Positions 51,723-64,000 of a stretch of DNA of 64,000 nt are shown here, one piece after another (the stretch's first letter is position 1; the number at the start of each line of letters is the position of its first letter). A program made the translations under genes and the position numbers. The notes under the pieces were generated by a model. That model was not told the origin of the DNA and ran no database searches. It worked only from the letters and a program-made list of their open reading frames with translations. Source of the stretch: Caulobacterales bacterium (GTDB lineage Bacteria; Pseudomonadota; Alphaproteobacteria; Caulobacterales; Caulobacteraceae); contig JBIOEF010000002.1 of the NCBI GenBank assembly GCA_044445785.1, positions 13,831 through 77,830 on the forward strand, in the 5' to 3' direction.

Positions 51723-51983
51723 TCAAGGTTTTCTTCCGCCGTTGCCCTCGACGTAATGTGGTGAGGCTTCGAGACCTTCAAAGAAGTACTCGATGGGGAC
51801 GCCAAGAACCGCAGCGACGGCCCAAAGACGTGCTGCGGAGATTCTGTTCTGTCCGCATTCGTACTTCTGGACCTGCTGGAAGCCGACGCCTACGGCGTCG
51901 CCCACGTCCTTTTGAGTGAGGCCCACAAGCCTCCGCCGCTGGCGAATGCGGCTCCCGACATGCGTGTCCATATCCAGGTCCAT
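51723..51983 (-). CDS. XRE-family HTH regulator
   Basis: HVGSRIR.RR...GLTQ, FQQVQKYE.G.NRISA. Confidence 0.92.
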   Translation of the reverse strand: MDLDMDTHVGSRIRQRRRLVGLTQKDVGDAVGVGFQQVQKYECGQNRISAARLWAVAAVLGVPIEYFFEGLEASPHYVEGNGGRKP

Positions 51984-52034
51984 GCGTGCGATACCCGCCG
52001 CCCGAACCCCGCGCGAAAGAAAGAGCCAACTGCC

Positions 52035-52049
52035 TTAACAAGGCGTGAA
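52035..52049. promoter_or_regulatory. CtrA-type box upstream of XRE gene
   Basis: TTAA-N7-TGAA (TTCA-N7-TTAA on minus strand), overlapping GANTC 52047-52051. Confidence 0.55.
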
Positions 52050-52122
52050 TCCCAAGGCTAAGGGCCGCTGTGGCCGTTGACGAGAGGGGTGCGGCCGCGG
52101 GCTCGCGACAACGGGCGTTGGC

Positions 52123-52961
52123 TGTGCTGTCAGTCCAACGGCAACCTGTCTCCGTCGAGGCGCAGTGAGCCCAAACCCAGCCGAGGCTACCCCATGACTG
52201 TCCGCCACTCCGCCACTCCGCCAATGCGGCGGAGCGTCTCTCCTTGTAGATTTCGCGGCTGACTAAGTGGCGCTCCTGGCTGAAATGGTTGTGGACCGAG
52301 GCGTGAACCGAGACGAATTTCTGCAGGGTCTTCATCCTGCGGAGCCGGTTCATGGCCCGCTCTCTTCGTCGGAAGGGCAGGTGGCTGTTCTCGGCCCGAT
52401 TGTTCTTCCAGCGGCGCACCGGCGCCTGCCGGCTCTTGGCGTTCAGCGCCTTCAGCGCCGCGCCGTAAGAGGCCAGGCTATCGGTGACGATCGCCTGGGT
52501 TCTGCCATGCCGCTTCATGGCTTTCTTGATGAACTTCAACGCCGCGGCCTTGTCGCGCGCTGTGGTGACGTAGGACTCCAGCACTTCGCCCTCGTGGTCG
52601 ACAGCGCGCCAGAGGTAACGCTTCTGGCCGTTCACCTTGACCACCATCTCGTCCAGATGCCAGCGCCAGTGGGTGTGTTGGCGCATCGCCTGAACCCGCT
52701 TCTTGCGGAGCTGGCCGGCGAACATCGGACCGAACCTGTTCCACCAGTGCCGCACCGTCTCGTGACAAATGTCGATGCCGCGCTCGAACAGCAGGTCCTC
52801 GACGTTGCGCAGCGACAGCGGGTATCTCACGTACATGAGCACTACGAGCCTGATCACCTCGGGCGAGGAGTCAAACCAGCGGAAGGGGTCGTCGGACTTG
52901 GCCATGGCGGGCACTTATCGGGCCCCGGTTAGCGCGCCAAGAAATTTGCGCTGACATCACC
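52123..52961 (-). mobile_element. IS6-family insertion sequence (about 839 bp)
   Basis: Imperfect terminal IRs tgtgctgtcagtccaa / reverse complement ggtgatgtcagcgcaa; IS6 DDE transposase inside; no flanking TSD seen. Confidence 0.88.
52187..52905 (-). pseudogene. IS6 transposase with C-terminal frameshift (reads through to 51778)
   Basis: YPLSLRNVEDLL.ERG, WHLDE, NNRAENSH; extra 8-bp unit tccgccac at 52201-52223 shifts frame before the in-element stop at 52187. Confidence 0.8.
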
Positions 52962-52974
52962 GGAGCCGCTAAAC

Positions 52975-53280
52975 GTGATGCTTCCGCGTTTCATTGTTGC
53001 TGCCGTAATCGGTGCGGCCATGTTTGCGACTTCGGCCCGAGGCGACGATGCCGCCCAAAACGCCGAAGCAGCGGCTCAACTTGGTTCAAAGTACTGTAGT
53101 TTTCCCCACTCCGCGCCCGTCAAGTGGTCCGCCAAGCTCACCGAGACAGGTGACTGGGTGGCTTGGCCGGGCGACGCGAATGGGCCGTACTGTTCCAAGC
53201 CAATCGCATTCATCCGCGATGGGCACGTGTTCTGCGACATCGCCAAGTGCGTGGACGTGAAGCGGCCGAATTCAAAGTGA
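52975..53280 (+). CDS. Small secreted Cys-containing hypothetical protein
   Basis: Signal peptide, four Cys. Confidence 0.55.
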   Translation: MMLPRFIVAAVIGAAMFATSARGDDAAQNAEAAAQLGSKYCSFPHSAPVKWSAKLTETGDWVAWPGDANGPYCSKPIAFIRDGHVFCDIAKCVDVKRPNSK

Positions 53281-53422
53281 GACACTACCCGCCCAGGAAG
53301 GCCGACAAGCACAGCCTCAGTCTGCTGGGCCGCTATGGCGACGCGGGCGCGATCACGCCGGAGCGCGAGCTGGTCGACGGCGAGGTCCTGGACGGGGCGA
53401 TGCTGAGGCGCTGAGGGCACGT

Positions 53423-53476
53423 GCGTCTGCTTTTGGGAGCAGGGGGTCGCGTGTTCGAATCACGCCGCCCCGACCA
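53423..53476 (+). pseudogene. 3' fragment of tRNA-Pro(TGG), att-like remnant
   Basis: Anticodon arm tctgc-ttttggga-gcagg (one extra T), T arm GTTCGAATC, ends CCGACCA; no recognisable D arm. Confidence 0.8.
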
Positions 53477-53516
53477 TGGTCGAGATTACCGATGGCAAGC
53501 GGAGCGTCGCCCCCAA

Positions 53517-55082
53517 CTATTGCAACGTTTTCGGATCGAGGATTGCCCGACGGATCGATCGATAGTCGTCGCGGGGCACATCTACGTAGCCTTCGCCCTC
53601 GATCTCAAATAGCCCTTCGGGCGCCCCAGCCGTATTGATCAGTTCGACGTAACATCCATAGTCAATCTTGTAGACATCGTACCGTTTGCCCGGTTCGTCG
53701 CGAGAAGAAACGTTCTTCTTGAGAATATGAAGCAAGCGCGAGTCGAATAATTTCTCAATCCCTTCGTCTCGCACATTACTGGGGAACAGGAAGGCTCTAG
53801 CTCTTCGCTTTCCGATCACCCCATCCACTATGTGGTCGAGCAACGCACCTAACTCTGGGCTGCTTCGGATCGCTGCCGCCTTGTCTTGGTTATACCAGTC
53901 TCGCGCCGCCGCGCGAACGTGGCTCATTGCGATTCGTTGGCCATATCCTTTGGTGGCAATCTTCGCGGCTAGATTCAATGCGTCGCGCGGTACCCCCTCG
54001 ACTGCTCGCACGAACTCTTCAAACACTGGGTATTGGGTAAAAGCAGTGTGAATGAAGGAGTCAGCGTCTGCGAAGACAGGCGGATTACCCTCAGCACTCG
54101 TGTAGTGCCGAAATATCAACGCCTTGATAAAAGCAGTCGCTTTATCCTGGCTATTGTCGAAGACAAGGAAATCATCGAGATTCAAGTCCGCCGACAAATC
54201 CGCACCCAACTCCAAGCCTATATATTCTCCCCTTTCCTTCAAGATGACAAACTGAGATCTATGTTCTATTGCAGCAATCTTAACGGTGATCTCGTTGATC
54301 GGCAGTAATATTCTTCGCAGAAGGTCCGCTAGATAAGGTTGAAGTTCAAGGGGTAGTTCGCTCCACTCATCGATCAGGAGCCAGATTCGAGGTGTGTCCA
54401 GCACGGCTATTAAGTCGCCTAAGGTGGCCGCAATATTTCCGAAGGTTAGATGTACCAGTTCCACGCCAGAGCGAAGTATGCGTCGCGAGGTTTCTGTCGT
54501 TCGCTCTCGTTCGTGACGAGCCTCAATATCTACAGACACCGGCTTTCCCGTGCTGATCTTCCCCGAGAGGCCTGCGCTCTCCTTGGCCGACCCGGTGTCC
54601 GTCTGTTCAACTTCCGCAGTTCCCGCGATGCGGATCGTACTTAGCGCTTCTTGTAGACGGTCCAGGCGCCGTGTCAGCTCGCCTGGGTTGGGATGTTGGT
54701 CGATGCGTTCGAGCGTGAGGCCGTACAGTTCGTCATACAGGCCCCCGAGCACATCTACCACCAACGTCGACGCCCGCTCGGACATCGCCCTGCCACCGTC
54801 TGAGTATATGGACCCATTGGAGCCGATAGATCTGAGATCCAGGTAAATAGCGCGCTCTCCGCGACCCTCGACAATCTCAGCGAGGTATTTCAGAGCGTGT
54901 GTCTTACCTGTTCCTCTACGCCCGTAGATGACTTGATTGTTGGTCGTGGAAAGCAAGTCGAAAAGAGGGGCTGAGTCGACAAAGGTCGCTACCAAAGTGG
55001 CATCGGACGATTTCTCCGCGCGTTTATTGAAGGCGATCAGCGCTTTATGAATGCGCTCAAGCACTTCCGAGTCTTCAGCCAT
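53517..55082 (-). CDS. Standalone P-loop ATPase (ORC/CDC6-like or STAND-like)
   Basis: Walker A GRRGTGKT, Walker B WLLIDE, GVPRDAL sensor; visibly lower GC than core genes. Confidence 0.8.
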   Translation of the reverse strand: MAEDSEVLERIHKALIAFNKRAEKSSDATLVATFVDSAPLFDLLSTTNNQVIYGRRGTGKTHALKYLAEIVEGRGERAIYLDLRSIGSNGSIYSDGGRAMSERASTLVVDVLGGLYDELYGLTLERIDQHPNPGELTRRLDRLQEALSTIRIAGTAEVEQTDTGSAKESAGLSGKISTGKPVSVDIEARHERERTTETSRRILRSGVELVHLTFGNIAATLGDLIAVLDTPRIWLLIDEWSELPLELQPYLADLLRRILLPINEITVKIAAIEHRSQFVILKERGEYIGLELGADLSADLNLDDFLVFDNSQDKATAFIKALIFRHYTSAEGNPPVFADADSFIHTAFTQYPVFEEFVRAVEGVPRDALNLAAKIATKGYGQRIAMSHVRAAARDWYNQDKAAAIRSSPELGALLDHIVDGVIGKRRARAFLFPSNVRDEGIEKLFDSRLLHILKKNVSSRDEPGKRYDVYKIDYGCYVELINTAGAPEGLFEIEGEGYVDVPRDDYRSIRRAILDPKTLQ

Positions 55083-55228
55083 TCCTTCGCCCTTGATGCG
55101 CGCACGCCGCAATCTAGACCGATCTTAGGTTGAAGCAATGCTCGAACGCTAAGGGCCGGGTGAAGCACCTGTGTAATACGTAAGTAGTGGATTTATAGGG
55201 GCGTTAAATTTGCTTGGGAGCATAAGCC

Positions 55229-55256
55229 AATGACTGCGTTCGACCCATTGCTGACC
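55229..55256 (+). repeat. Degenerate GTCCGC repeat unit R1
   Basis: aatgactgcgttcgacccattgctgacc versus consensus atgtccgctttcgacccaaagcggac. Confidence 0.55.
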
Positions 55257-55630
55257 CTCAAGAAGGGTGGCAGGTCTGCGGATCAGGTCGTCCTCGCAGC
55301 GTCATTCCATGGAACACCCTGACTGGCGGCGCGACGCCTTCCATGAGCTCCAAGAAAAGATCGCTCGACTTAGAGCCGCTTATCGGCTCGGCGATAGGGT
55401 ACGTTACTGCTGCCGCCAGTGACTTCAGTGTAGGGCGTCTGGTTGTCTCCATTGGCGGTTCGTCGGGCTCCTCCGCACCGGTCGCTGTTCGAAACAACTC
55501 GTGGGGCGGCGGAGCAGTGTCCCCCCGGCTCGCCCGAGCGACTCCACTACCGAATTTTCACTCAGAATGGCAGACGGGGTGTCAAGCCAGCGTCAGGCAG
55601 CGCAAATCCGGTATTTTGCCGGTGCTCGGA

Positions 55631-55677
55631 ACGTCCGCTTTTCGGCACGGTACCGAGGTCCGCTATCGACCCAAAGC
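55631..55677 (+). repeat. GTCCGC repeat unit R2, left part (completed by 57062-57069)
   Basis: gtccgcttttcggc-spacer-gtccgctatcgacccaaagc | IS | ggacattc. Confidence 0.9.
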
Positions 55678-55765
55678 AGATGGGGTGGATGGCTCCCGTT
55701 CCCGGCGTCTGAGCGCCAAAGTGTGGGTTGCTGTCGAGCAAACCACGAGCAGGGAGCCATCCGTC

Positions 55766-56800
55766 ATGCAGATTACCACCGTCGGCCTGGATCTGGCCAA
55801 GAGCGTCTTTCAAGTTCACGCGATCAACGGCGCCGGTGAGGTTGTCGTGCGCCGAGCGCTGAGGCGCGCGCAGGTGTTGCCGTTCTTCGGCAAGCTTGCG
55901 CCGTGTCTGATCGGGATCGAGGCCTGCGGAACGAGCCATCACTGGGCGCGGGAGCTGGTCCGTCTTGGGCACGAGGTGCGGTTGATGCCGCCGGCCTACG
56001 TCAAGCCGTACGTGAAGCGGGGCAAGACCGACGCCGGCGACGCGGAGGCGATCTGCGAGGCGGTGAGGCGCCCGACCATGCGCTTCGTTCCGATCAAGTC
56101 GGTTGAGCAGCAGGCGGCGCTCTCGCTGCATCGGACGCGTGACCTGCTCGTGCGTCAGCGCACGCAGCTGGTGAACATGATCCGCGACCTGCTTGCAGAG
56201 TTCGGCGTCGATCTTCCACGCGGGATCGGCCATGCCCTGGCCTTCGCCCGGCGAGCGGTCGCCGGCGAGGCGCAGGCGCTTCCCGACCTGGCGGCCAGGG
56301 TGATCGGCAGTCTCGCCGAACAGGCGCTCGAAGGTCAGGCTCGCATCCGCCGGCTTGAACGCGAGCTTCTGGCCTGGCATCGCTCCAGCGATCTGGCCAG
56401 ACGCATCGCCACCGTGCCGGGGGTCGGACTGCTGGGCGCCACGGCCTTGGCGGCGGCGGTCACCGATCCCACCCAGTTCCGCTCCGGCCGCCAGTTCGCC
56501 GCCTGGTTGGGCCTCACCCCGCTGCAGAACTCCAGCGGCGGCAAGGAGCGGCTGGGGCGGATCTCCAAGATGGGCGACCGGTATCTGCGCCGGCTCCTGA
56601 TCGTCGGCATGACTTCGCTCGTGCGCCAGTCCAGACACAACCCCGGCGCCACCGCGCCCTATGTGGCCGACCTGCTCGCCCGCAAGCCGGCCCGCCTGGC
56701 CACGGTCGCCATGGCCAACAAGGCCGCCCGGGCGATCTGGGCGATCATGGTGCGCGGCGGCGTCTATCGGACGCCCGCTCCAGCCATGGCGACGGCCTAA
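55766..56800 (+). CDS. IS110-family DEDD recombinase/transposase
   Basis: GLDLAKSVFQVH, IEAC, KTDAGDAEAI, GLTP...SSGGK. Confidence 0.96.
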   Translation: MQITTVGLDLAKSVFQVHAINGAGEVVVRRALRRAQVLPFFGKLAPCLIGIEACGTSHHWARELVRLGHEVRLMPPAYVKPYVKRGKTDAGDAEAICEAVRRPTMRFVPIKSVEQQAALSLHRTRDLLVRQRTQLVNMIRDLLAEFGVDLPRGIGHALAFARRAVAGEAQALPDLAARVIGSLAEQALEGQARIRRLERELLAWHRSSDLARRIATVPGVGLLGATALAAAVTDPTQFRSGRQFAAWLGLTPLQNSSGGKERLGRISKMGDRYLRRLLIVGMTSLVRQSRHNPGATAPYVADLLARKPARLATVAMANKAARAIWAIMVRGGVYRTPAPAMATA

Positions 56801-57044
56801 GCCTCGGTCAGCGCCGCCAGCAGAAGCGCTCAGAGGTTGCGAGGACGATGTGACGTGATGGCGAAACGGTCAGACCGAGACGAGGACAACCCGACTAATG
56901 TCCAGGGCGACTTGAGCCCGCAAAGCAGAATGGGACCTCGTTCGCGCAAACCATCAAGGCCAGCGGTCAATGACCGCGCAAACAGGTCGAACACAAGACT
57001 GCACCCAACCACCACGCCAAACCTTCACATCACCCCTTGCAACG
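56801..57044 (+). ncRNA. Putative bridge/seek RNA region of the IS1111-type element
   Basis: Long 3' non-coding end; aatgtcc (56897-56903) is the reverse complement of the right target flank and caaagc (56921-56926) equals the left target flank, both in an internal loop; boundaries approximate. Confidence 0.75.
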
Positions 57045-57161
57045 CGGGAGCCATCCACACAGGACATTCGGGGGTCCGCGTCCGGACGCTAACGACGAGG
57101 ACCTGGCAGACGCGCGCCACGCGAGTGTGTAGCGTCGTCAACCCAATGGGCGGGGTCGGTC

Positions 57162-58136
57162 ATGCAGAAGTCAGCCATCGTCGCGATCATGGGGGCCCTG
57201 TTGTCGTCGCTCGCCGTGGCTCAGCCAAATCCGGCGCCGAAGGTTCCGCCAGCGATACCTTCCGTCGTTGTCGGTGATCCCGGGCCGACCGGGGTCAGGA
57301 TCGACAAGGACGGGGTGTTCGCGAACTTCTTCCCGGCCAAGGCTCGGGGCAGGCGACCGGCGATCCTGTTGCTGGGCGGATCGGAGGGCGGCCTCAGCCC
57401 GGGCGGCGAAGGTCCGATCAAGGCGCTCACCGCGGAAGGATTCGACGTCCTGTACCTTTGTTATTTCGGCTGTCCCGGCACGCCGCATCAGCTGGTGGCG
57501 GTGCCATTGGAGACCTTCGACCGAGCGCTTGCGTTCCTTCGGCGCCAGACGGGCGTTGATCCGAACCGGATCGGGGTTGTCGGTGGTTCGAAGGGCGGCG
57601 AAGCGGCCTTGCTCGTCGCGACGCGCCAACCGAGACTGAAAGCGGTGGTCGTCGGGATGCCTTCCAGCGTGGCTTGGCCCGGTGTCACAAATTCACTGAC
57701 GATGCAGCCGAGTTGGACCTCGGGCGGCGCGCCCGTGCCCTTCCTGCCCTACGCCTTTGCCTCCTATGCGAAGGCCGGCATCTTCGGCCTCTACAACGAC
57801 GCCTTGCCTACCCTGGCGCAACATCCAGAGGCCGCCATTCCAGTCGAGCAAGTCGCCGGCCCCATCATGCTGGTCTGCGGCGAAGCAGACACCCTTTGGC
57901 CGTCATGCACGATGGCGGATCAGATATCGCGTCGGCTGACGTCCAGGGGTAGGCCGGCGCCGACAGTCTTGCGCTACGCCGATGCGGGCCACCAAGTATT
58001 CGGGCCTCCAGTGCAGAACACGAACTCGAACGACTGGCTCGCGAGCCTAGGCGGAACCGTCAACGGGAACGCGACGGCGCGGGCTGACGGCTGGCCAAAG
58101 GTTGTAGCCTTCCTAAAGATCAAGCTTAGACCCTAG
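57162..58136 (+). CDS. Secreted alpha/beta hydrolase (BAAT/acyl-CoA thioesterase C-terminal-like)
   Basis: Signal peptide, LGGSEGG, GGSKGGE, D.LWPS, Y..AGH. Confidence 0.88.
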   Translation: MQKSAIVAIMGALLSSLAVAQPNPAPKVPPAIPSVVVGDPGPTGVRIDKDGVFANFFPAKARGRRPAILLLGGSEGGLSPGGEGPIKALTAEGFDVLYLCYFGCPGTPHQLVAVPLETFDRALAFLRRQTGVDPNRIGVVGGSKGGEAALLVATRQPRLKAVVVGMPSSVAWPGVTNSLTMQPSWTSGGAPVPFLPYAFASYAKAGIFGLYNDALPTLAQHPEAAIPVEQVAGPIMLVCGEADTLWPSCTMADQISRRLTSRGRPAPTVLRYADAGHQVFGPPVQNTNSNDWLASLGGTVNGNATARADGWPKVVAFLKIKLRP

Positions 58137-58195
58137 TCTTCAGCATGGCGGGGCCGGCCCTTCGCCGACAACGAGATGCGTGCGCTCACCACCCA

Positions 58196-58846
58196 TCACT
58201 GACAATGGGAAGGTCCGCTTCCGGGCAACTCACCTGAGTCCGCTTTCGACCCAAAGCGGACATTCAGCAGTTCCGTTCGTGGCGTGCGAGGGTAGGGAGG
58301 CATGCTCGCATGCTCGCGGTAGAGCGCGGCGTCCATCGAGTAGACCACCGCTTCGAACTCGCCACCTTCATCACTGAGCCGCGGCGCATGATTGAATCTC
58401 ATTCCGATCCGACGCATCACGGCGATGCTCCGCATGTTTGGGGCGTCAGCGACCGAGATGACGCGCGCAGTTCCAAGGCTTTCGAAGGCATAAGCAAGCC
58501 ACGCGGACGCGGCCTCCGTGGCGTAGCCATTCCCCCAATAAGCACTGCCAAAGCGCCAGCCAATCTCGAGGTCGTGCGGAAACCAAGCCTCAATGGACAG
58601 ACCGCACATCCCCAAGAATGTGCCGTCACCTCGTCGCTCGACTGCAATCTTGCCGAAACGCCGCGTTGCGAAACACCGGTTCGCGCCGTCAGCTTGCTCG
58701 TCGGACACGGTGCGCGACAGGGCAATACCGCCCAAGAATTCGACAACGGCCGGGTCGGCGTTGATTTCAGCGTAGACGGGAAGGTCCTGCGTGCGGAACG
58801 GTCGCAGGATCAGCCGCTCGGTTTCCAGAACTAATCCCCGGTCCAT
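58196..58846 (-). CDS. RimJ/RimL-type GNAT acetyltransferase
   Basis: LETERLILRP, EIGWR...YWGNGYATEA, N.RS..VM.RIGM; tail reads through repeat R3. Confidence 0.88.
   Translation of the reverse strand: MDRGLVLETERLILRPFRTQDLPVYAEINADPAVVEFLGGIALSRTVSDEQADGANRCFATRRFGKIAVERRGDGTFLGMCGLSIEAWFPHDLEIGWRFGSAYWGNGYATEAASAWLAYAFESLGTARVISVADAPNMRSIAVMRRIGMRFNHAPRLSDEGGEFEAVVYSMDAALYREHASMPPYPRTPRTELLNVRFGSKADSGELPGSGPSHCQ
58210..58265 (+). repeat. GTCCGC repeat unit R3
   Basis: aaggtccgcttccgggc-aactcacct-gagtccgctttcgacccaaagcggacattc. Confidence 0.92.
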
Positions 58847-58938
58847 GTGTCTAACATGCTCGACATCGAGGAGCGTCAGCCTAGGCGTCAATTGCCCGCC
58901 GTACCAGTGTTCAAACAAGACACTTTAGCCGCCCTCAC

Positions 58939-59097
58939 GAGTCCGATATGGGGCGCAAAGCTGCCGATCCGCTACGTGCGCCAAAGGGCAGCTTTGGCCA
59001 AAAGCGCCCAACTATCTTGGGTACCAAGCGTCAGATTTTGACCACTAGCAACCGCCGAAACATCCGCGTTAGGTCCGCTTTCGGCCCGTTGCAGACC
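58939..59097 (+). repeat. Cluster of degenerate GTCCGC units R4
   Basis: gagtccgatatggggcgcaaagctgcc (58939) and aggtccgctttcggcccgttgcagacc (59071). Confidence 0.6.
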
Positions 59098-59148
59098 ACG
59101 CGTCTTCGCGGCACTCTCGGCGCGAGCTTCGCGAACGTAGGGCTCCAG

Positions 59149-59634
59149 ATGCTGAGGAAACGATCGCTCTCCAAAGCATGGGTCGTCGCTAGCCTGTTGC
59201 TCGCGGCGTCCGGAGCTAGCCAGGCGCAGCAGAGCGATCACATGGTCTTGGGGCCGGACCAATTTAAGTTTGATCAGACGCGTTCCGGCGCGGTTCTCTG
59301 CGCGTGGTCGATGTACCTGGAGACTCAGGCGGCAACCAAAGCCTGCGGGCTGACCCGAGGGCCCGCAGACGATGCCATAGACAGAGCAATTCTCGACATC
59401 GACGGCTTCATTATTGCGAACTCCTCGCTTCACCCTACGCGGGCCGCACTGGAGGAGTTCAAGCGACGCACCAATGACGCGTTCATTCGCGACCTTCGCA
59501 GTCGCAGCCTGCGGAAGTTCTGCGAGGGGCCGGACCTGGAAGCATTCCGCGCCGGCTCTCCGGCCGGAATTGCGTCCTCTGTTCGTGCGCTTCTCGCTAA
59601 GCCCCGCGAACCCGTAATGAACCCGTGCCTATAG
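59149..59634 (+). CDS. Secreted hypothetical protein
   Basis: Signal peptide ending ASQA; four Cys. Confidence 0.7.
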   Translation: MLRKRSLSKAWVVASLLLAASGASQAQQSDHMVLGPDQFKFDQTRSGAVLCAWSMYLETQAATKACGLTRGPADDAIDRAILDIDGFIIANSSLHPTRAALEEFKRRTNDAFIRDLRSRSLRKFCEGPDLEAFRAGSPAGIASSVRALLAKPREPVMNPCL

Positions 59635-59718
59635 TTCCGCTCCTCACCCATCTCTGACATCGGGAAGGTCCGCTTTCGGGCATAGCGCCGATGTCCGCTT
59701 TCGACCCAAAGCGGACAT
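59634..59718 (+). repeat. GTCCGC repeat unit R5
   Basis: Degenerate unit plus ggaaggtccgctttcgggc-atagcgcc-gatgtccgctttcgacccaaagcggacat. Confidence 0.92.
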
Positions 59719-59750
59719 GGTGACAACGGGATTGTTTCCGCCGGACCGGC

Positions 59751-60584
59751 CTAAAACCACCCCTCGTTCCTGAGCGAGCGGGCGTAGTTACGGCTGACGG
59801 GCGCCTCGACGCCGTTCGGCAGCTTTAACATGGCGCGACCTTCGATGCGGCGTGCGCCGAGCACCGCGCCTTTCGCCACCCACCAGGAGCGATGGGTCTG
59901 CGCGCCCTCGACGCCCTCAAGTTCGGCGACGGCGTCGGTAAGCCGCATCAGGATCAGGTCGGATCCCTGCGACGTGTGTGCGCGCAGGTAGTGGTCTTCA
60001 GCCTCGACGGCATAGATCTCAGCGCCGCGAAGCTTGGCGGGCAGCCTCTCGAGAAATCGCGGCGGGGGCGCATCAGCGAGCGTGCTGGCGTGCGTATGGA
60101 TTGGGCGACGATTTGCGAGCGCGTTGATGAAGGTCATCGCTAGCGAGACGATCAGCACCGGACCGGCAAGCTCCAACAGCGTTCCGTACGGTTCTCGCCA
60201 AGAGAACAGCCAGCGGGTGACCGCATACACCGCCAGGACGCTCGGCGGGGTCATCACCACCGCGGTTACCGCCGCCATCAAAAAAGGGTGGCGCCGGTCC
60301 GGATCAAACAGCGCGGTCACGACAACATCTGTGGCGAAGCCAAGGCCCGTTCCGCCGACGATCAGCAACAGCCAGTAGATCAAGCGCGACGACAGCGACG
60401 CGGTGACCGTGCCGAACGGGCCGATCAGCGCCAGAAACACCGCCGCCCCGCATGCGATAGCGAAACTGCGGAGCAGACTTTCGCGGTCGAACGTCCGTGC
60501 CCCCCGACCCAGGCGGTTAAGCCACGTGGTCGCTGATTCGGTCACTGGCGCTGCGTCAACGGCAAGGGACGACCGTTCACGCAT
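59751..60584 (-). CDS. Membrane-anchored LytTR regulator
   Basis: Four TM segments then EAEDHYLR, LMRL.DA, QTHRSWWV, PVSR; start uncertain. Confidence 0.9.
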   Translation of the reverse strand: MRERSSLAVDAAPVTESATTWLNRLGRGARTFDRESLLRSFAIACGAAVFLALIGPFGTVTASLSSRLIYWLLLIVGGTGLGFATDVVVTALFDPDRRHPFLMAAVTAVVMTPPSVLAVYAVTRWLFSWREPYGTLLELAGPVLIVSLAMTFINALANRRPIHTHASTLADAPPPRFLERLPAKLRGAEIYAVEAEDHYLRAHTSQGSDLILMRLTDAVAELEGVEGAQTHRSWWVAKGAVLGARRIEGRAMLKLPNGVEAPVSRNYARSLRNEGWF

Positions 60585-60684
60585 GCCGGGCGACCCTTCG
60601 TGCATCGAGCCAGGCGCCGCTTTGAGCGGTGAGCTAGGCCGATCCCGGAAGAAGAGGGAGCGCTGATGGAAGTCCTCCCACATC

Positions 60685-61251
60685 GTGAGCCGCCAAATGA
60701 CGCCGCCATCAAAGACCCTGTCAATCGGACCCGACGCCCAGGATCCATTTCATTCCACCGACCGCGAGCGGTTGATCTGGGGACTTCTCCTATCGGGCCT
60801 GCTCGCGGGCGCGTTGGCGCTGGTTCTGATCGTCGGCGGCAGCGCGCACTTGCATTGGCCGAACCTCTCGTTGTTGGCCGGCCAGCCCGCTGTCTTGCTC
60901 ATCCATATCGGCGGGGCGTTGACCGCTTTGATTATCGGCGCCGGCATCACGTGGGGCGCCAAAGGTACCACCATTCACCGCGCGCTGGGCTGGATATGGG
61001 TGGTCGCCATGATGACAACGGCTGGCGCTTCGTTCTTTCTGCACTTCCTCAACCCCGGCGGGTTCAGCCCAATTCATGCGCTCAGCGCCTATGTCGCGAT
61101 CGCCGTGCCGATGGGCGTCGCGTTCGCTCGCAGGCATGACATCCGCGCCCATCGAAGGATGATGACCGGCAACTTCCTGTTTGGCCTGATCGTGGCGGGC
61201 GCCTTCACCTTCGCCCCGGGCCGACTAATGTGGAAAATATTCTTGGGGTAG
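60685..61251 (+). CDS. DUF2306-like membrane protein
   Basis: KGT..HR.LG..WV, SPIH.LS, HRRMM, FTF.PGR.M. Confidence 0.8.
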   Translation: MSRQMTPPSKTLSIGPDAQDPFHSTDRERLIWGLLLSGLLAGALALVLIVGGSAHLHWPNLSLLAGQPAVLLIHIGGALTALIIGAGITWGAKGTTIHRALGWIWVVAMMTTAGASFFLHFLNPGGFSPIHALSAYVAIAVPMGVAFARRHDIRAHRRMMTGNFLFGLIVAGAFTFAPGRLMWKIFLG

Positions 61252-61268
61252 GGATCACTCCCCGGCGG

Positions 61269-61339
61269 GTCCGCTTTCTGGCGGGGTCCCGAGGTCCGCT
61301 TTCGACCATAGCGGACTCTCAGAGCGTCCGCTTTCGGGC
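61269..61339 (+). repeat. GTCCGC repeat unit R6
   Basis: gtccgctttctggc-spacer-gaggtccgctttcgaccatagcggactc plus an extra gtccgctttcgggc. Confidence 0.9.
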
Positions 61340-61348
61340 ATCCAGATC

Positions 61349-61768
61349 TCAGGTCTTCGCGGGTCTGCCGAGCCTGAGCCACGCCTGCCTATCTTGCTCC
61401 CGAACGAAACACTGAGCGAGCGCCACCAAGGCCCGTCTCGCTTCTCGCTCTTCAATGGTCGCAAAGACCGCCAGGAGCTCGCTGGTGCCCGGGTCCCCGA
61501 GTTGCGCCCTGATGATAGGCTGGATGCGTTCGGGCCCGTCCTCGCCGACGAGAGCCGCGACGCTGGTCTCCAGTCTGGCGGCGGTCTTCACGAGCATTGA
61601 AGCTGAGAGCCTGTTGGCCCCGCGCTCATACTTCTGCAGCTGCTGAAAACAGACCCCAAGCGCCGCGGCGAGGGCCTTCTGGCTGACCTCTAGCTCAAGG
61701 CGTCGGCCGCGGATGCGGTCGCCAATCTCAACGTCGAGACCAGCGTTGTCTCTCGCCACCCGTCCCAC
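61349..61768 (-). CDS. XRE-family HTH regulator
   Basis: IGDRIR.RR....SQ..LA, FQQLQKYERGANRLSA; start uncertain. Confidence 0.88.
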   Translation of the reverse strand: MGRVARDNAGLDVEIGDRIRGRRLELEVSQKALAAALGVCFQQLQKYERGANRLSASMLVKTAARLETSVAALVGEDGPERIQPIIRAQLGDPGTSELLAVFATIEEREARRALVALAQCFVREQDRQAWLRLGRPAKT

Positions 61769-61774
61769 CTCTGC

Positions 61775-62002
61775 CTAGGGTTTGTGGCAAACGTCCGTCG
61801 CTTTGATGCAAGTGTTTCCACAAGGCTTGCCCTTCGTGCAATGTTTGGGCGACGCGGAAGCGGTCGGCGATGCTGGCGCCGCGGCCGGCGGCGGACACTT
61901 GATGAACTTCCCGGTCTTTGGGTCCTTGCAGGCCTTCGCGTCGGCCGCGCCGGCGGCAAGTGCGATGGCAAGCGTCGCGACGATCAAGAGTGTCCGGTGC
62001 AT
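61775..62002 (-). CDS. Secreted Cys-rich miniprotein (modules A+B, 75 aa)
   Basis: MHRTLL signal peptide; CKDPKTGKFIKC and CTKGKPCGNTCIKATDVCH; GGGAGA RBS. Confidence 0.8.
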   Translation of the reverse strand: MHRTLLIVATLAIALAAGAADAKACKDPKTGKFIKCPPPAAAPASPTASASPKHCTKGKPCGNTCIKATDVCHKP

Positions 62003-62127
62003 TGGTTTCTCCCTGTCTACGGTCCACGCTGGACCCACTCTGGGAGGAGGGCAAGCGACAGGCCCGGCGGCCGTGTAGTTTGGGCGCGCTTGCGCCGTGA
62101 GATTCGTGGTCGGGTCCGGGTGGCCCG

Positions 62128-62322
62128 TCAGTCCGGCGACCACGCGCTCAGTCGCCACGCTTCGCCGACCTCGCGTCCTTCAAGATCGATCCAGCCGCGA
62201 TCCGCGCGCCATGAGACTGCTTTGAACATCGCGCCCTTCGGCTCGGAGCGCTCGAAATAGCCGCGGTAGACACGGCCGTCTCTTGGCGCGGCCTCAAGCG
62301 TACGAGGTGCGAGGGCGGTCAT
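62128..62322 (-). CDS. Small hypothetical protein (64 aa)
   Basis: LEAAPRDG start and Trp-rich end, reminiscent of small phage-type proteins. Confidence 0.5.
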   Translation of the reverse strand: MTALAPRTLEAAPRDGRVYRGYFERSEPKGAMFKAVSWRADRGWIDLEGREVGEAWRLSAWSPD

Positions 62323-62382
62323 ACGGCCACGCTATATCCGGCGCCCACTTGGAGTCGAGCTGGCGCCGGGCTGGGTCGCCGC

Positions 62383-62667
62383 CTAGTAGGCGCTGTGGCT
62401 CGTGACTGGCGTTTCGCACTCGACGAACTTGCCTGTCTTTGGGTCGCGGCAACGTCTTGGCGGGGCCTTACACATGTCCGCTGCTACGAACTTCCCATTG
62501 GCGTCGTGGCAATTGTCCTTGGCGTCTAACGTGTAGGGGCCGACGCTTGTGGAGCTGGCGGAATTGGTGGGAGCGGTGTTCCAGCCGTTCCCGGTCTCCC
62601 CCGCGAAGCTGGCAGATGCGAAAGCTAGGGCCGCAGTGGCGGTTAGGATCATAAGCGTGCGGTGCAT
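62383..62667 (-). CDS. Secreted Cys-rich miniprotein (modules C+A, 94 aa)
   Basis: MHRTLM signal peptide; GPYTLDAKDNCHDANGKFV...C and CRDPKTGKFVEC. Confidence 0.8.
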   Translation of the reverse strand: MHRTLMILTATAALAFASASFAGETGNGWNTAPTNSASSTSVGPYTLDAKDNCHDANGKFVAADMCKAPPRRCRDPKTGKFVECETPVTSHSAY

Positions 62668-62741
62668 GACGTTTTCTCCCTTCCGGCAAACTGGCGGGGA
62701 TGGCCGGCGGCGACAAGGGCTGGACGGTTGCCTAGGACGGC

Positions 62742-62996
62742 CTAATAAGCCTTGCTGCCCTGGCTATGCTCGATGGCGATGGCGTTGTCGGGGCGCGGCG
62801 TGGGCTTGTGGCAGACCTTGTTCTTCGCGATGCAAGTGTGTCCGCACAGCTTTCCGTGCTTGCAGACAGGCGCGATCCCGCGAACCGGCGAGGTGTCGGC
62901 CGTAGGTTTCAAGGGACCATGTACGGCCACAGCGTTAGCCGCACCGGCGGCGAGCGCGAAAGCGAGGGCGGCGACAATCATAAGCGTGCGGTGCAT
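62742..62996 (-). CDS. Secreted Cys-rich miniprotein (module B, 84 aa)
   Basis: MHRTLM signal peptide; CKHGKLCGHTCIAKNKVCH; AGGAGA RBS. Confidence 0.8.
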   Translation of the reverse strand: MHRTLMIVAALAFALAAGAANAVAVHGPLKPTADTSPVRGIAPVCKHGKLCGHTCIAKNKVCHKPTPRPDNAIAIEHSQGSKAY

Positions 62997-63066
62997 GGCG
63001 TGTTCTCCTATCCGGCACACTGGCGAGGATGATCGGCGGCTACAAGGGCTGGGTGGTCGCCTAGCC

Positions 63067-63357
63067 CTACCTCGGCCCCTTCCCAGGGATGTATTGGCGC
63101 TCGTCCGGTGTCGCCACGTGGCAGACCTTGTTCTTGGCGATGCACGCGTGGCCACAGGGAACCCCGTGCTTGCAGTGCGGCGGCGTCACGCATTGGCTGT
63201 GACCCACGAACTGGCCGTTCGCGGCGTGGCACATGCCGTTGGCGTCAAGCTTGAATGGACCGGCCGGGACATTCATCGAGGCGCTCGTGCCGAAACTGGC
63301 GCCGGAGAGAGAAGCGAATGCGAGAGCCGCTACGGCGGCGATGACCAGGCTGCGCAT
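63067..63357 (-). CDS. Secreted Cys-rich miniprotein (modules C+B, 96 aa)
   Basis: MRSLVI signal peptide; GPFKLDANGMCHAANGQFV...C and CKHGVPCGHACIAKNKVCH; GGAGG RBS. Confidence 0.8.
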   Translation of the reverse strand: MRSLVIAAVAALAFASLSGASFGTSASMNVPAGPFKLDANGMCHAANGQFVGHSQCVTPPHCKHGVPCGHACIAKNKVCHVATPDERQYIPGKGPR

Positions 63358-63426
63358 GGGTTTCCTCCCGCTTTGTCCGTAGTCTACGCTGGCAGGCCCG
63401 AAACGAAAGTGTCTCAGCAGACCGCC

Positions 63427-63480
63427 GAAGTCTGCTTTCCGGCATGGCACTGATGTCCGCTTTCGACCCAGAGCGGACAT
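63427..63480 (+). repeat. GTCCGC repeat unit R7
   Basis: gaagtctgctttccggc-atggcact-gatgtccgctttcgacccagagcggacat. Confidence 0.92.
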
Positions 63481-63717
63481 CGAGCGCCAGTGCTCTGCCA
63501 CGCCGCAGACCCGTGAAATCGGCTATCGCCTTTCAATCATCACCGCCGCCGTCCTAACATTCGCGTTGGCCGTCGCCAGCGCTTTGGCGCTCCGGCGAAT
63601 GATCGGATCAGTGGTCCGGTTGGCGAGATCGGGGCGGTTCGAATCATCAAACGCATGACCGATTTGGCCCTGCAATCGCGGCCACGAACTCGCCCGTCTC
63701 CGCTTGGCAGCGCCGAG

Positions 63718-64000
63718 CTATCCGACGGGAGACTGATCGTGGAGCGACGCGGTCCGCCCAAGGCCCAAGCAATCTCGCTCTCGCCGCCGGCTCGCGTCGG
63801 GGAACGATCTGAAGGCTGAGCCTTCGATCAGATCTTTACCCGAGCTCGGCGCACTGGGTTCGTGATTGCCGCTGACGTTGGTCGTCCCGTGCTCTCGCGC
63901 GCTGGCCTCGTCCCAACGGAATTCCGTCTCGTCCACCCAGATCCGGTGAAGGATCGTCGCCAAGCGCCTCGCCATCGCGACGACGGCCTTGGCCCTGCCT
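63718..64000 (-). mobile_element. C-terminal part of a second IS110-family transposase (truncated by window edge)
   Basis: KAVVAMARRLATILHRIWVDETEFRW is typical of IS110 C-termini. Confidence 0.75.

Follow-up and report, generated by a model that had tools for sequence, protein, structure and literature searches.

An insertion sequence of the IS1111 family, 1,384 bp long, lies at 55678–57061 of the window, by which we mean the whole 64,000-nucleotide stretch of DNA analysed here; the features of the element and of the repeat around it are all on the forward strand. Its boundaries were set by comparison with intact copies of the repeat that it interrupts, and it is the sole full copy in the 3.88-Mb assembly (G000, 89.6% complete). 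Judged by the relatives of its genes, the window would come from a Caulobacteraceae-like host. An uninterrupted frame (55766–56800) encodes a transposase/recombinase of 344 aa that matches PF01548, PF02371 and NF033542, the last with 334 bits against a cut-off of 140. Residues D9, E52, D89 and D92 are present, together with a serine at 257, and we assign their roles by analogy. Two sub-terminal inverted repeats of 14 bp, 100% complementary to each other, lie 7 bp inside the left end (55685–55698) and 3 bp inside the right end (57045–57058), and an internal 11-bp copy (55752–55762) directly precedes the start codon. The 7/3-bp end offsets are also found in homologs. Non-coding DNA extends over 261 bp downstream of the transposase gene (56801–57061) versus 88 bp upstream. 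Sub-terminal repeats, end offsets, DEDD transposase and 3′ non-coding region together confirm the IS1111-type identity proposed in the preliminary description, and every IS1111 feature in the accessible parts of PMC11187229 that can be judged from sequence is found here. Elsewhere in the assembly, a second, related IS1111 element is represented by left ends at two contig ends (G000:C170 and C68) with differing flanks, and a 40-bp left-end stump follows a box-like flank at G000:C49:18145–18184.

The element splits one copy of a three-box repeat. Box A (55633–55641) is a direct copy standing 25 bp before box B, which with its 6-bp spacer CGACCC covers 55658–55672; the left half of box C, AAAGC (55673–55677), forms the left target flank, and the right half with its tail, GGACATT (57062–57068), forms the right one. 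Deleting 55678–57061 makes box C whole again, so that boxes B and C and the 6-bp spacer between them line up with the copies at 58238–58261 and 59693–59716, just as had been claimed; the empty site is an intact repeat and there is no net target duplication. The bases GA at +2/+3 are common to the target and the circle junction, so that an “exact” insertion here means one without net duplication. A 3-bp CAG target duplication was considered and rejected, because the empty site would exceed the intact repeats by one base and the circle junction would measure 9 bp, whereas the donor guide described below covaries with a 10-bp junction.

Upstream of the element, the window holds an IS6-family transposase (51778–52914) and, in a lower-GC stretch, a gene for an ORC-CDC6-like ATPase (53517–55112). 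A 46-bp segment at 53431–53477 is 97.8% identical to the 3′ part of tRNA-Pro(TGG) on G000:C165 and is likely what remains of an island attachment site, immediately before the repeat array; a tRNA-Leu called by ARAGORN at 53381–53476 overlaps this tRNA-Pro-like segment and is probably spurious. Downstream, three short paralogous cysteine-containing small proteins with no Pfam match are encoded at 61775–63501.

A predicted guide RNA and its covariation

The 3′ non-coding region contains a predicted seek/bridge RNA (56868–57010, ends approximate), delimited by its fold and by compensatory changes and composed of a target-loop arm (56880–56941) and a donor arm (about 56944–57002). We infer the RNA ends and the placement of the outer donor stem. 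RNAalifold, applied to 64 sequences, returned an outer stem, a 3-bp inner stem, an inner hairpin and two donor-arm helices, with two-sided changes in 16 of the 22 predicted pairs. The outer stem (acgagg 56880–56885, cctcgt 56936–56941) and the inner hairpin (gggc/gccc, 56905–56919) had been proposed beforehand at exactly these positions, and both are recovered with compensatory changes; the fold of the single sequence departs from shuffles only modestly (z only −1.75).

In the target loop, aatgtcc (56897–56903) is the complement of the right flank’s top strand and reads about +2 to +7, while the segment 56922–56929 repeats the left flank and runs on into the opening bases of the element; it reads −5 to +2/+3 and would pair with the bottom strand. 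In the donor arm, acacaaga (56991–56998) matches the predicted circle junction, and a possible second donor guide at 56951–56956, containing ccatc, is conserved. The earlier placements of these words (caaagc at 56921–56926 and ccatc at 56951–56955 among them) were all accurate. Chance alone produces some of them readily: among 3,000 dinucleotide shuffles of a 244-nt non-coding region, aatgtcc arose in 35, acacaaga in 55, caaagc in 529 and ccatc in 840, both target guides together in 6, and all four guides in 0. Since caaagc and ccatc are so frequent in shuffles, they are weak as single matches, and it is covariation that carries the weight.

Covariation was assessed on 231 sequences including the window, drawn from genome contigs (the best 80 of at least 253 loci), from metagenomes (at least 121 loci, retrieved with a right-end pattern) and from the host’s order (29 non-self loci). 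As the metagenome pattern fixes the right end, donor variation is lowered in that subset. The non-coding region and right end were present in 169 sequences, 106 of which also had the left end; removal of 7 elements with gaps or low identity left 162, which were grouped at 90% identity into 87 clusters with one representative each. Over 50 clusters, the left guide (56922–56926) matches flank positions −5 to −1 at 85%, compared with 43% after permutation, a level reached in 0 of 10,000 permutations; the clusters are kin, and this and the following permutation counts overstate their independence. In 103 cells the left guide departs from that of the window; the flank changes with it in 77 of them and retains the window’s base in 11. 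Position 56921 is not read (a match in 10 of 50 clusters), and positions 56927–56928 agree with bases 1 and 2 at the element’s left end in 48 and 49 of the 50 clusters, the match running on as CAAAGCAGA (56921–56929) over AGA into the element’s end. The claim that caaagc is the left-flank guide therefore stands in so far as it covaries with the flank, but its first C is not read and the match is longer than supposed.

The right guide in fixed alignment columns gives only 56 of 192 changed cells that follow, a figure distorted by register shifts; the comparison was for this reason repeated so as to tolerate such shifts, in the control as well as in the data. On average, 4.89 of 6 positions then match over 81 clusters versus 3.65 when permuted, with 0 of 5,000 permutations reaching the observed match, which upholds aatgtcc as the right-flank guide. 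Among the 59 clusters lacking the window’s hexamer, 37 match their own flank at 5/6 or better, versus 19 when the window’s guide is used instead. The right half is poorly matched at the sites of L012, L027 and L028. For the donor guide at 56991–56998, the match to the predicted junction is 94% versus 84% permuted (0 of 10,000), and the junction follows in 32 of 51 changed cells, in agreement with the earlier reading of acacaaga as a circle-junction guide. The same reading of ccatc finds no support in covariation: the word is nearly invariant, its match is reached in 666 of 10,000 permutations, and only 4 of 22 changed cells follow. The covarying guide and the conserved donor hairpin indicate that the donor arm is under selection. 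In a tree of 45 proteins, several distinct branches with good support show joint changes of guide and flank. Whether flanks of homologs always read AAAGC|GGAC had been proposed as a check; they vary, but the guides vary along with them. Taken together, these comparisons support target and donor guides that are readable and real.

The same clusters bear on the junction bases. The first three bases are identical at both junctions in 21 of 50 clusters, and 13 of 50 have AGA on the left and GGA on the right, as in the window; the base written in both guides nearly always stands at the left junction, and the variable target base at the right. The guide specifies A at +1, and 14 of 16 spacer-anchored genomic repeat copies in G000 have G there, so that one left-guide mismatch is likely tolerated at insertion. 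At L037 and L071 the right junction has one extra A, which suggests occasional off-by-one insertion.

A possible −35 element, the conserved TTGCAA at 57037–57042, lies close to the right end, and its TTGCA word is at least 90% conserved in homologs. We infer a weak −10 at 17 bp from TTGCA, which would arise only when the circle joins the two ends. A junction promoter has been described for the IS1111 family (PMC11187229, accessible parts), and a scan of the linear locus returned no promoter or terminator.

The three-box repeat and what the guide addresses

The repeat consists of box A, 16 bp, box B, a 6-bp spacer and an inverted box C, a layout that we take to resemble the core site of a tyrosine recombinase with an accessory box. 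Downstream of the element, intact co-oriented copies stand at 58213–58261, where one closes an acyl-CoA thioesterase-like gene unit, and at 59668–59716 and 63430–63478; a further co-oriented copy at 61269–61334 has a fourth box. The array runs past the window to G000:C2:83563, with 11 co-oriented repeats over G000:C2:69056–83563 (14.5 kb) and one or two unrelated small genes between them. A repeat HMM finds 55 matches (E<0.1) on 21 contigs of G000, and similar repeat-bounded units occur on its contigs C7 and C11 and in other genomes. Nonetheless, of 301 class genomes 10 contain the exact hairpin, with 29 copies at most, against 1 genome for a control pattern; the three-box form in its exact version was found in 5 of 201 genomes of the family and in none of 18 other genomes from the host’s genus. 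The repeat is thus abundant in some genomes, as had been inferred, but its exact hairpin is not broadly conserved across the class. Rfam gave two weak matches over 53000–64000 (E 0.64 and 0.76), neither of them anywhere near the gathering score. Neither the repeat motif, nor an insertion sequence targeting it, nor an alphaproteobacterial cassette system was found in the literature searched, outside which most subscription journals lie.

Several further observations concern the neighbourhoods of these repeats. Two different genes, at 61294–61402 and at G000:C11:34020–34150, end in the same short C-terminal peptide, which is accounted for by about 110–130 bp held in common and running into the repeat. 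In two distant genomes, the same gene family is found precisely between clusters of repeats (L255:8185–9792, L256:9691–11526, L257:1215–3053). A large serine recombinase module lies no more than a few kb from repeats at three places in G000 (C11, C56, C8) and at one in G498 (L258).

Within G000, AAAGC-R-GACATT has 10 matches versus 0.12 expected by composition, and all 10 exact matches lie inside the repeat with a partner box at canonical spacing; for comparison, a partner box of any kind accompanies 53 of 1,500 positions chosen at random. Shorter words are less specific (45 of 84 for a 9-mer). From sequence, the guide specifies a box of about 11 bp and not the whole repeat: the proposal that the RNA is programmed against the repeat holds for the location of its exact matches but not for the extent of what it reads. 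Where a genome carries the repeat, the box is nearly exclusive to it, and the repeat would thus offer a multi-copy intergenic safe site.

For homolog sites, a single-box PWM replaced the full three-box HMM, which was too specific to G000 and reached 13 bits or more at only 6 of 48 homolog empty sites; the box model, built from 15 copies of one genome, itself misses variants. By this model, box-like guides account for 37 unique empty sites including the window, and a partner box lies no more than 70 bp away at 18 of them (shuffled mean 2.0, maximum 7) but not at the other 19; 9, namely 8 homologs and the window, have it at canonical spacing. At sites of other guides, 10 of 39 have a partner box (shuffled mean 2.2, maximum 6). 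In one genome, G809, a pair of close copies occupies an identical position in the same three-box repeat, one of them with flanks equal to those of a site already counted. Other positions of the repeat are used as well: a distant IS1111 lineage is inserted at the box B|spacer edge (L216, L225, L236), L052_1 and L148_1 address that edge as judged by guide, and the L065 group is inserted within the spacer of a related hairpin. A sister lineage (L041–L043, L047, L062, L067, L075, L234, L281) has a target that matches the end of the window’s IS6-family element at about 52123–52150. By these sequence comparisons, the repeat is a real and repeatedly targeted site.

A small tyrosine recombinase of 206 aa is encoded within a repeat array of G844 (L356:1426–2043). 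Homologs of about this length stand just upstream of the insertion sequence at L057 and L029, 2 of the 55 loci with enough upstream DNA, and members also reside on alpha- and gammaproteobacterial plasmids (363 records). Around 21 of these genes, box density within 400 bp is 1.83/kb versus 0.34 in shuffles, and 13 loci have at least one box; beside 11 other tyrosine recombinases the density is 0.35/kb versus 0.51. When the three loci that had been found via the repeat or the element are set aside from the 21, there are 18 boxes in 12.3 kb, at 11 of 18 loci. The enrichment concerns single boxes only, as full hairpins are not enriched beside the recombinase (1 of 15 loci versus 3 of 29). The recombinase is found in only 2 of 9 hairpin-positive genomes (p 0.045) and not in G000. 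It also appears in L383 and L386 beside repeat-like boxes, which in L383 are direct boxes 25 bp apart on both sides. An all-against-all BLASTP of repeat-rich loci from eight genomes returned no common recombinase, and no integron integrase was seen. The co-oriented sites bracket single genes as in an integron-like cassette array, and at L306 one homologous gene aligns only as far as box A.

Mechanism, rival readings and known systems

We consider it very probable, judging from sequence and covariation, that this intact IS1111-family insertion sequence was placed in box C through base-pairing of its predicted 3′ RNA with the box. By extension from ISEc11, ISKpn4, ISPa11 and IS621, we envision that the element would excise as a circle with abutted ends and that a junction promoter would drive both transposase and RNA. 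The target loop would read AAAGC|RGACATT, top-strand complement first and bottom-strand match second, and the donor loop would read the circle junction; strand exchange over the common GA would then insert the element without net duplication. Rather unlikely, in our estimate, is a scheme in which the target loop alone is needed, as a short seekRNA, the protein on the long sub-terminal repeats and the target guides recognise the ends, while the donor arm is superfluous or serves a single step. An 82-nt ISEc11 seekRNA was indeed enough for movement, and circle formation required flanking target (PMC11187229, accessible parts); the left guide here likewise extends into the left junction at +1 and +2 in nearly all clusters. 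A dispensable arm is nevertheless hard to reconcile with a donor guide that follows the junction in 32 of 51 changed cells and with a conserved donor hairpin.

An improbable view is that a short motif of a generic kind is what the guide has been adapted to; its link with the repeat would then be incidental, and insertion here would reflect the motif content of this genome and no lasting pursuit of a conserved site. It would accommodate the 19 of 36 box-like homolog sites that lack a partner box, the scarcity of the exact repeat in most sampled genomes, and the unrelated targets of sister lineages, such as IS6-type ends. However, a box model from one genome misses variants, a partner box accompanies 17 of the 36 homolog sites (8 canonical), or 18 of 37 with the window, where shuffles reach at most 7, and separate lineages aim at other positions of the repeat (L216, L236, L225; the L065 group). 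We also lean against, while regarding as possible, a reading of the repeat as a dispersed palindrome of the REP/BIME or MITE kind, which would make the element another REP-targeting IS1111 like ISPa11. The palindromic core, the clusters of alternating boxes and the patchy copy number fit this well, as does the failure to find a dedicated recombinase in G000 or, with the query of about 206 aa, in the high-copy genomes G450, G490, G498 and G622. It sits less easily with co-oriented copies one to two genes apart (11 in 14.5 kb), with a fixed asymmetric 6-bp spacer and a 25-bp direct accessory box, and with boxes that are enriched beside the small tyrosine recombinase but not beside other tyrosine recombinases. 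The repeat probably serves as docking site in a gene-cassette system that has received little study. The fuller proposal, that it is an integron-like cassette site run by the recombinase of about 206 aa and exploited by a specialised IS1111 radiation with guides at three positions or more, has in our view close to an even chance. If true, it would be a counterpart of the IS1111–attC group on a different cassette system, the guides would map sites across genomes, and, with the repeat as cassette joint, an alphaproteobacterial gene-capture system would become directly testable.

The element itself is ordinary, and its interest lies in the target: no mechanism is new in this copy, since RNA-guided IS1111 elements have already been described, and as bridge RNAs were predicted in 93% of IS1111 elements (PMC11208160, accessible parts), a readable guide was to be expected here. 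What the homologs add is about 40 natural guide variants, each with its target, on a single RNA scaffold; this library reveals the read positions (−5 to +2 and +2 to +7), and the element offers a GA-core recombinase from a high-GC host. Among the matches listed, the most similar named transposase, by eye only, is ISMlo3 (an ISfinder name), with N-terminal and central motifs in common by the same visual judgement (supplement of PMC11187229); no paper naming that element was among the literature matches listed. The inverted-repeat strings were not found in the searched supplements of PMC11187229 and PMC11208160.

As far as the accessible parts of PMC11187229 describe them, ISEc11, ISKpn4, ISPst6 and ISPa11 share with this element the 7/3 offsets of the sub-terminal repeats, the DEDD transposase, the downstream non-coding region, the insertion without net duplication, a repeated intergenic target, and the guide order, since IS1111 seekRNAs carry the top-strand complement before the bottom-strand match. 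Unlike in those elements, the target is a three-box alphaproteobacterial repeat, by its anatomy probably neither attC nor the REP of P. aeruginosa, and natural retargeting over dozens of lineages is accompanied by an evident, covarying donor guide. In IS621, as given in the accessible parts of PMC11208160, separate target and donor loops likewise covary with target and circle junction around a short common core (CT there, GA here); in contrast to IS621, the RNA lies in the right end, the guide order is reversed and the sub-terminal repeats are long. The IS621-type donor loop has two covarying guides, whereas here one covaries (0 of 10,000) and the other does not stand out (666 of 10,000 permutations). 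Like the IS1111–attC group, which parasitises the cassette sites of integrons, the present lineage homes on repeated sites between single-gene units. By its anatomy, presumably, the repeat differs from attC in having conserved 9-bp inverted boxes, a 6-bp spacer and a direct accessory box.
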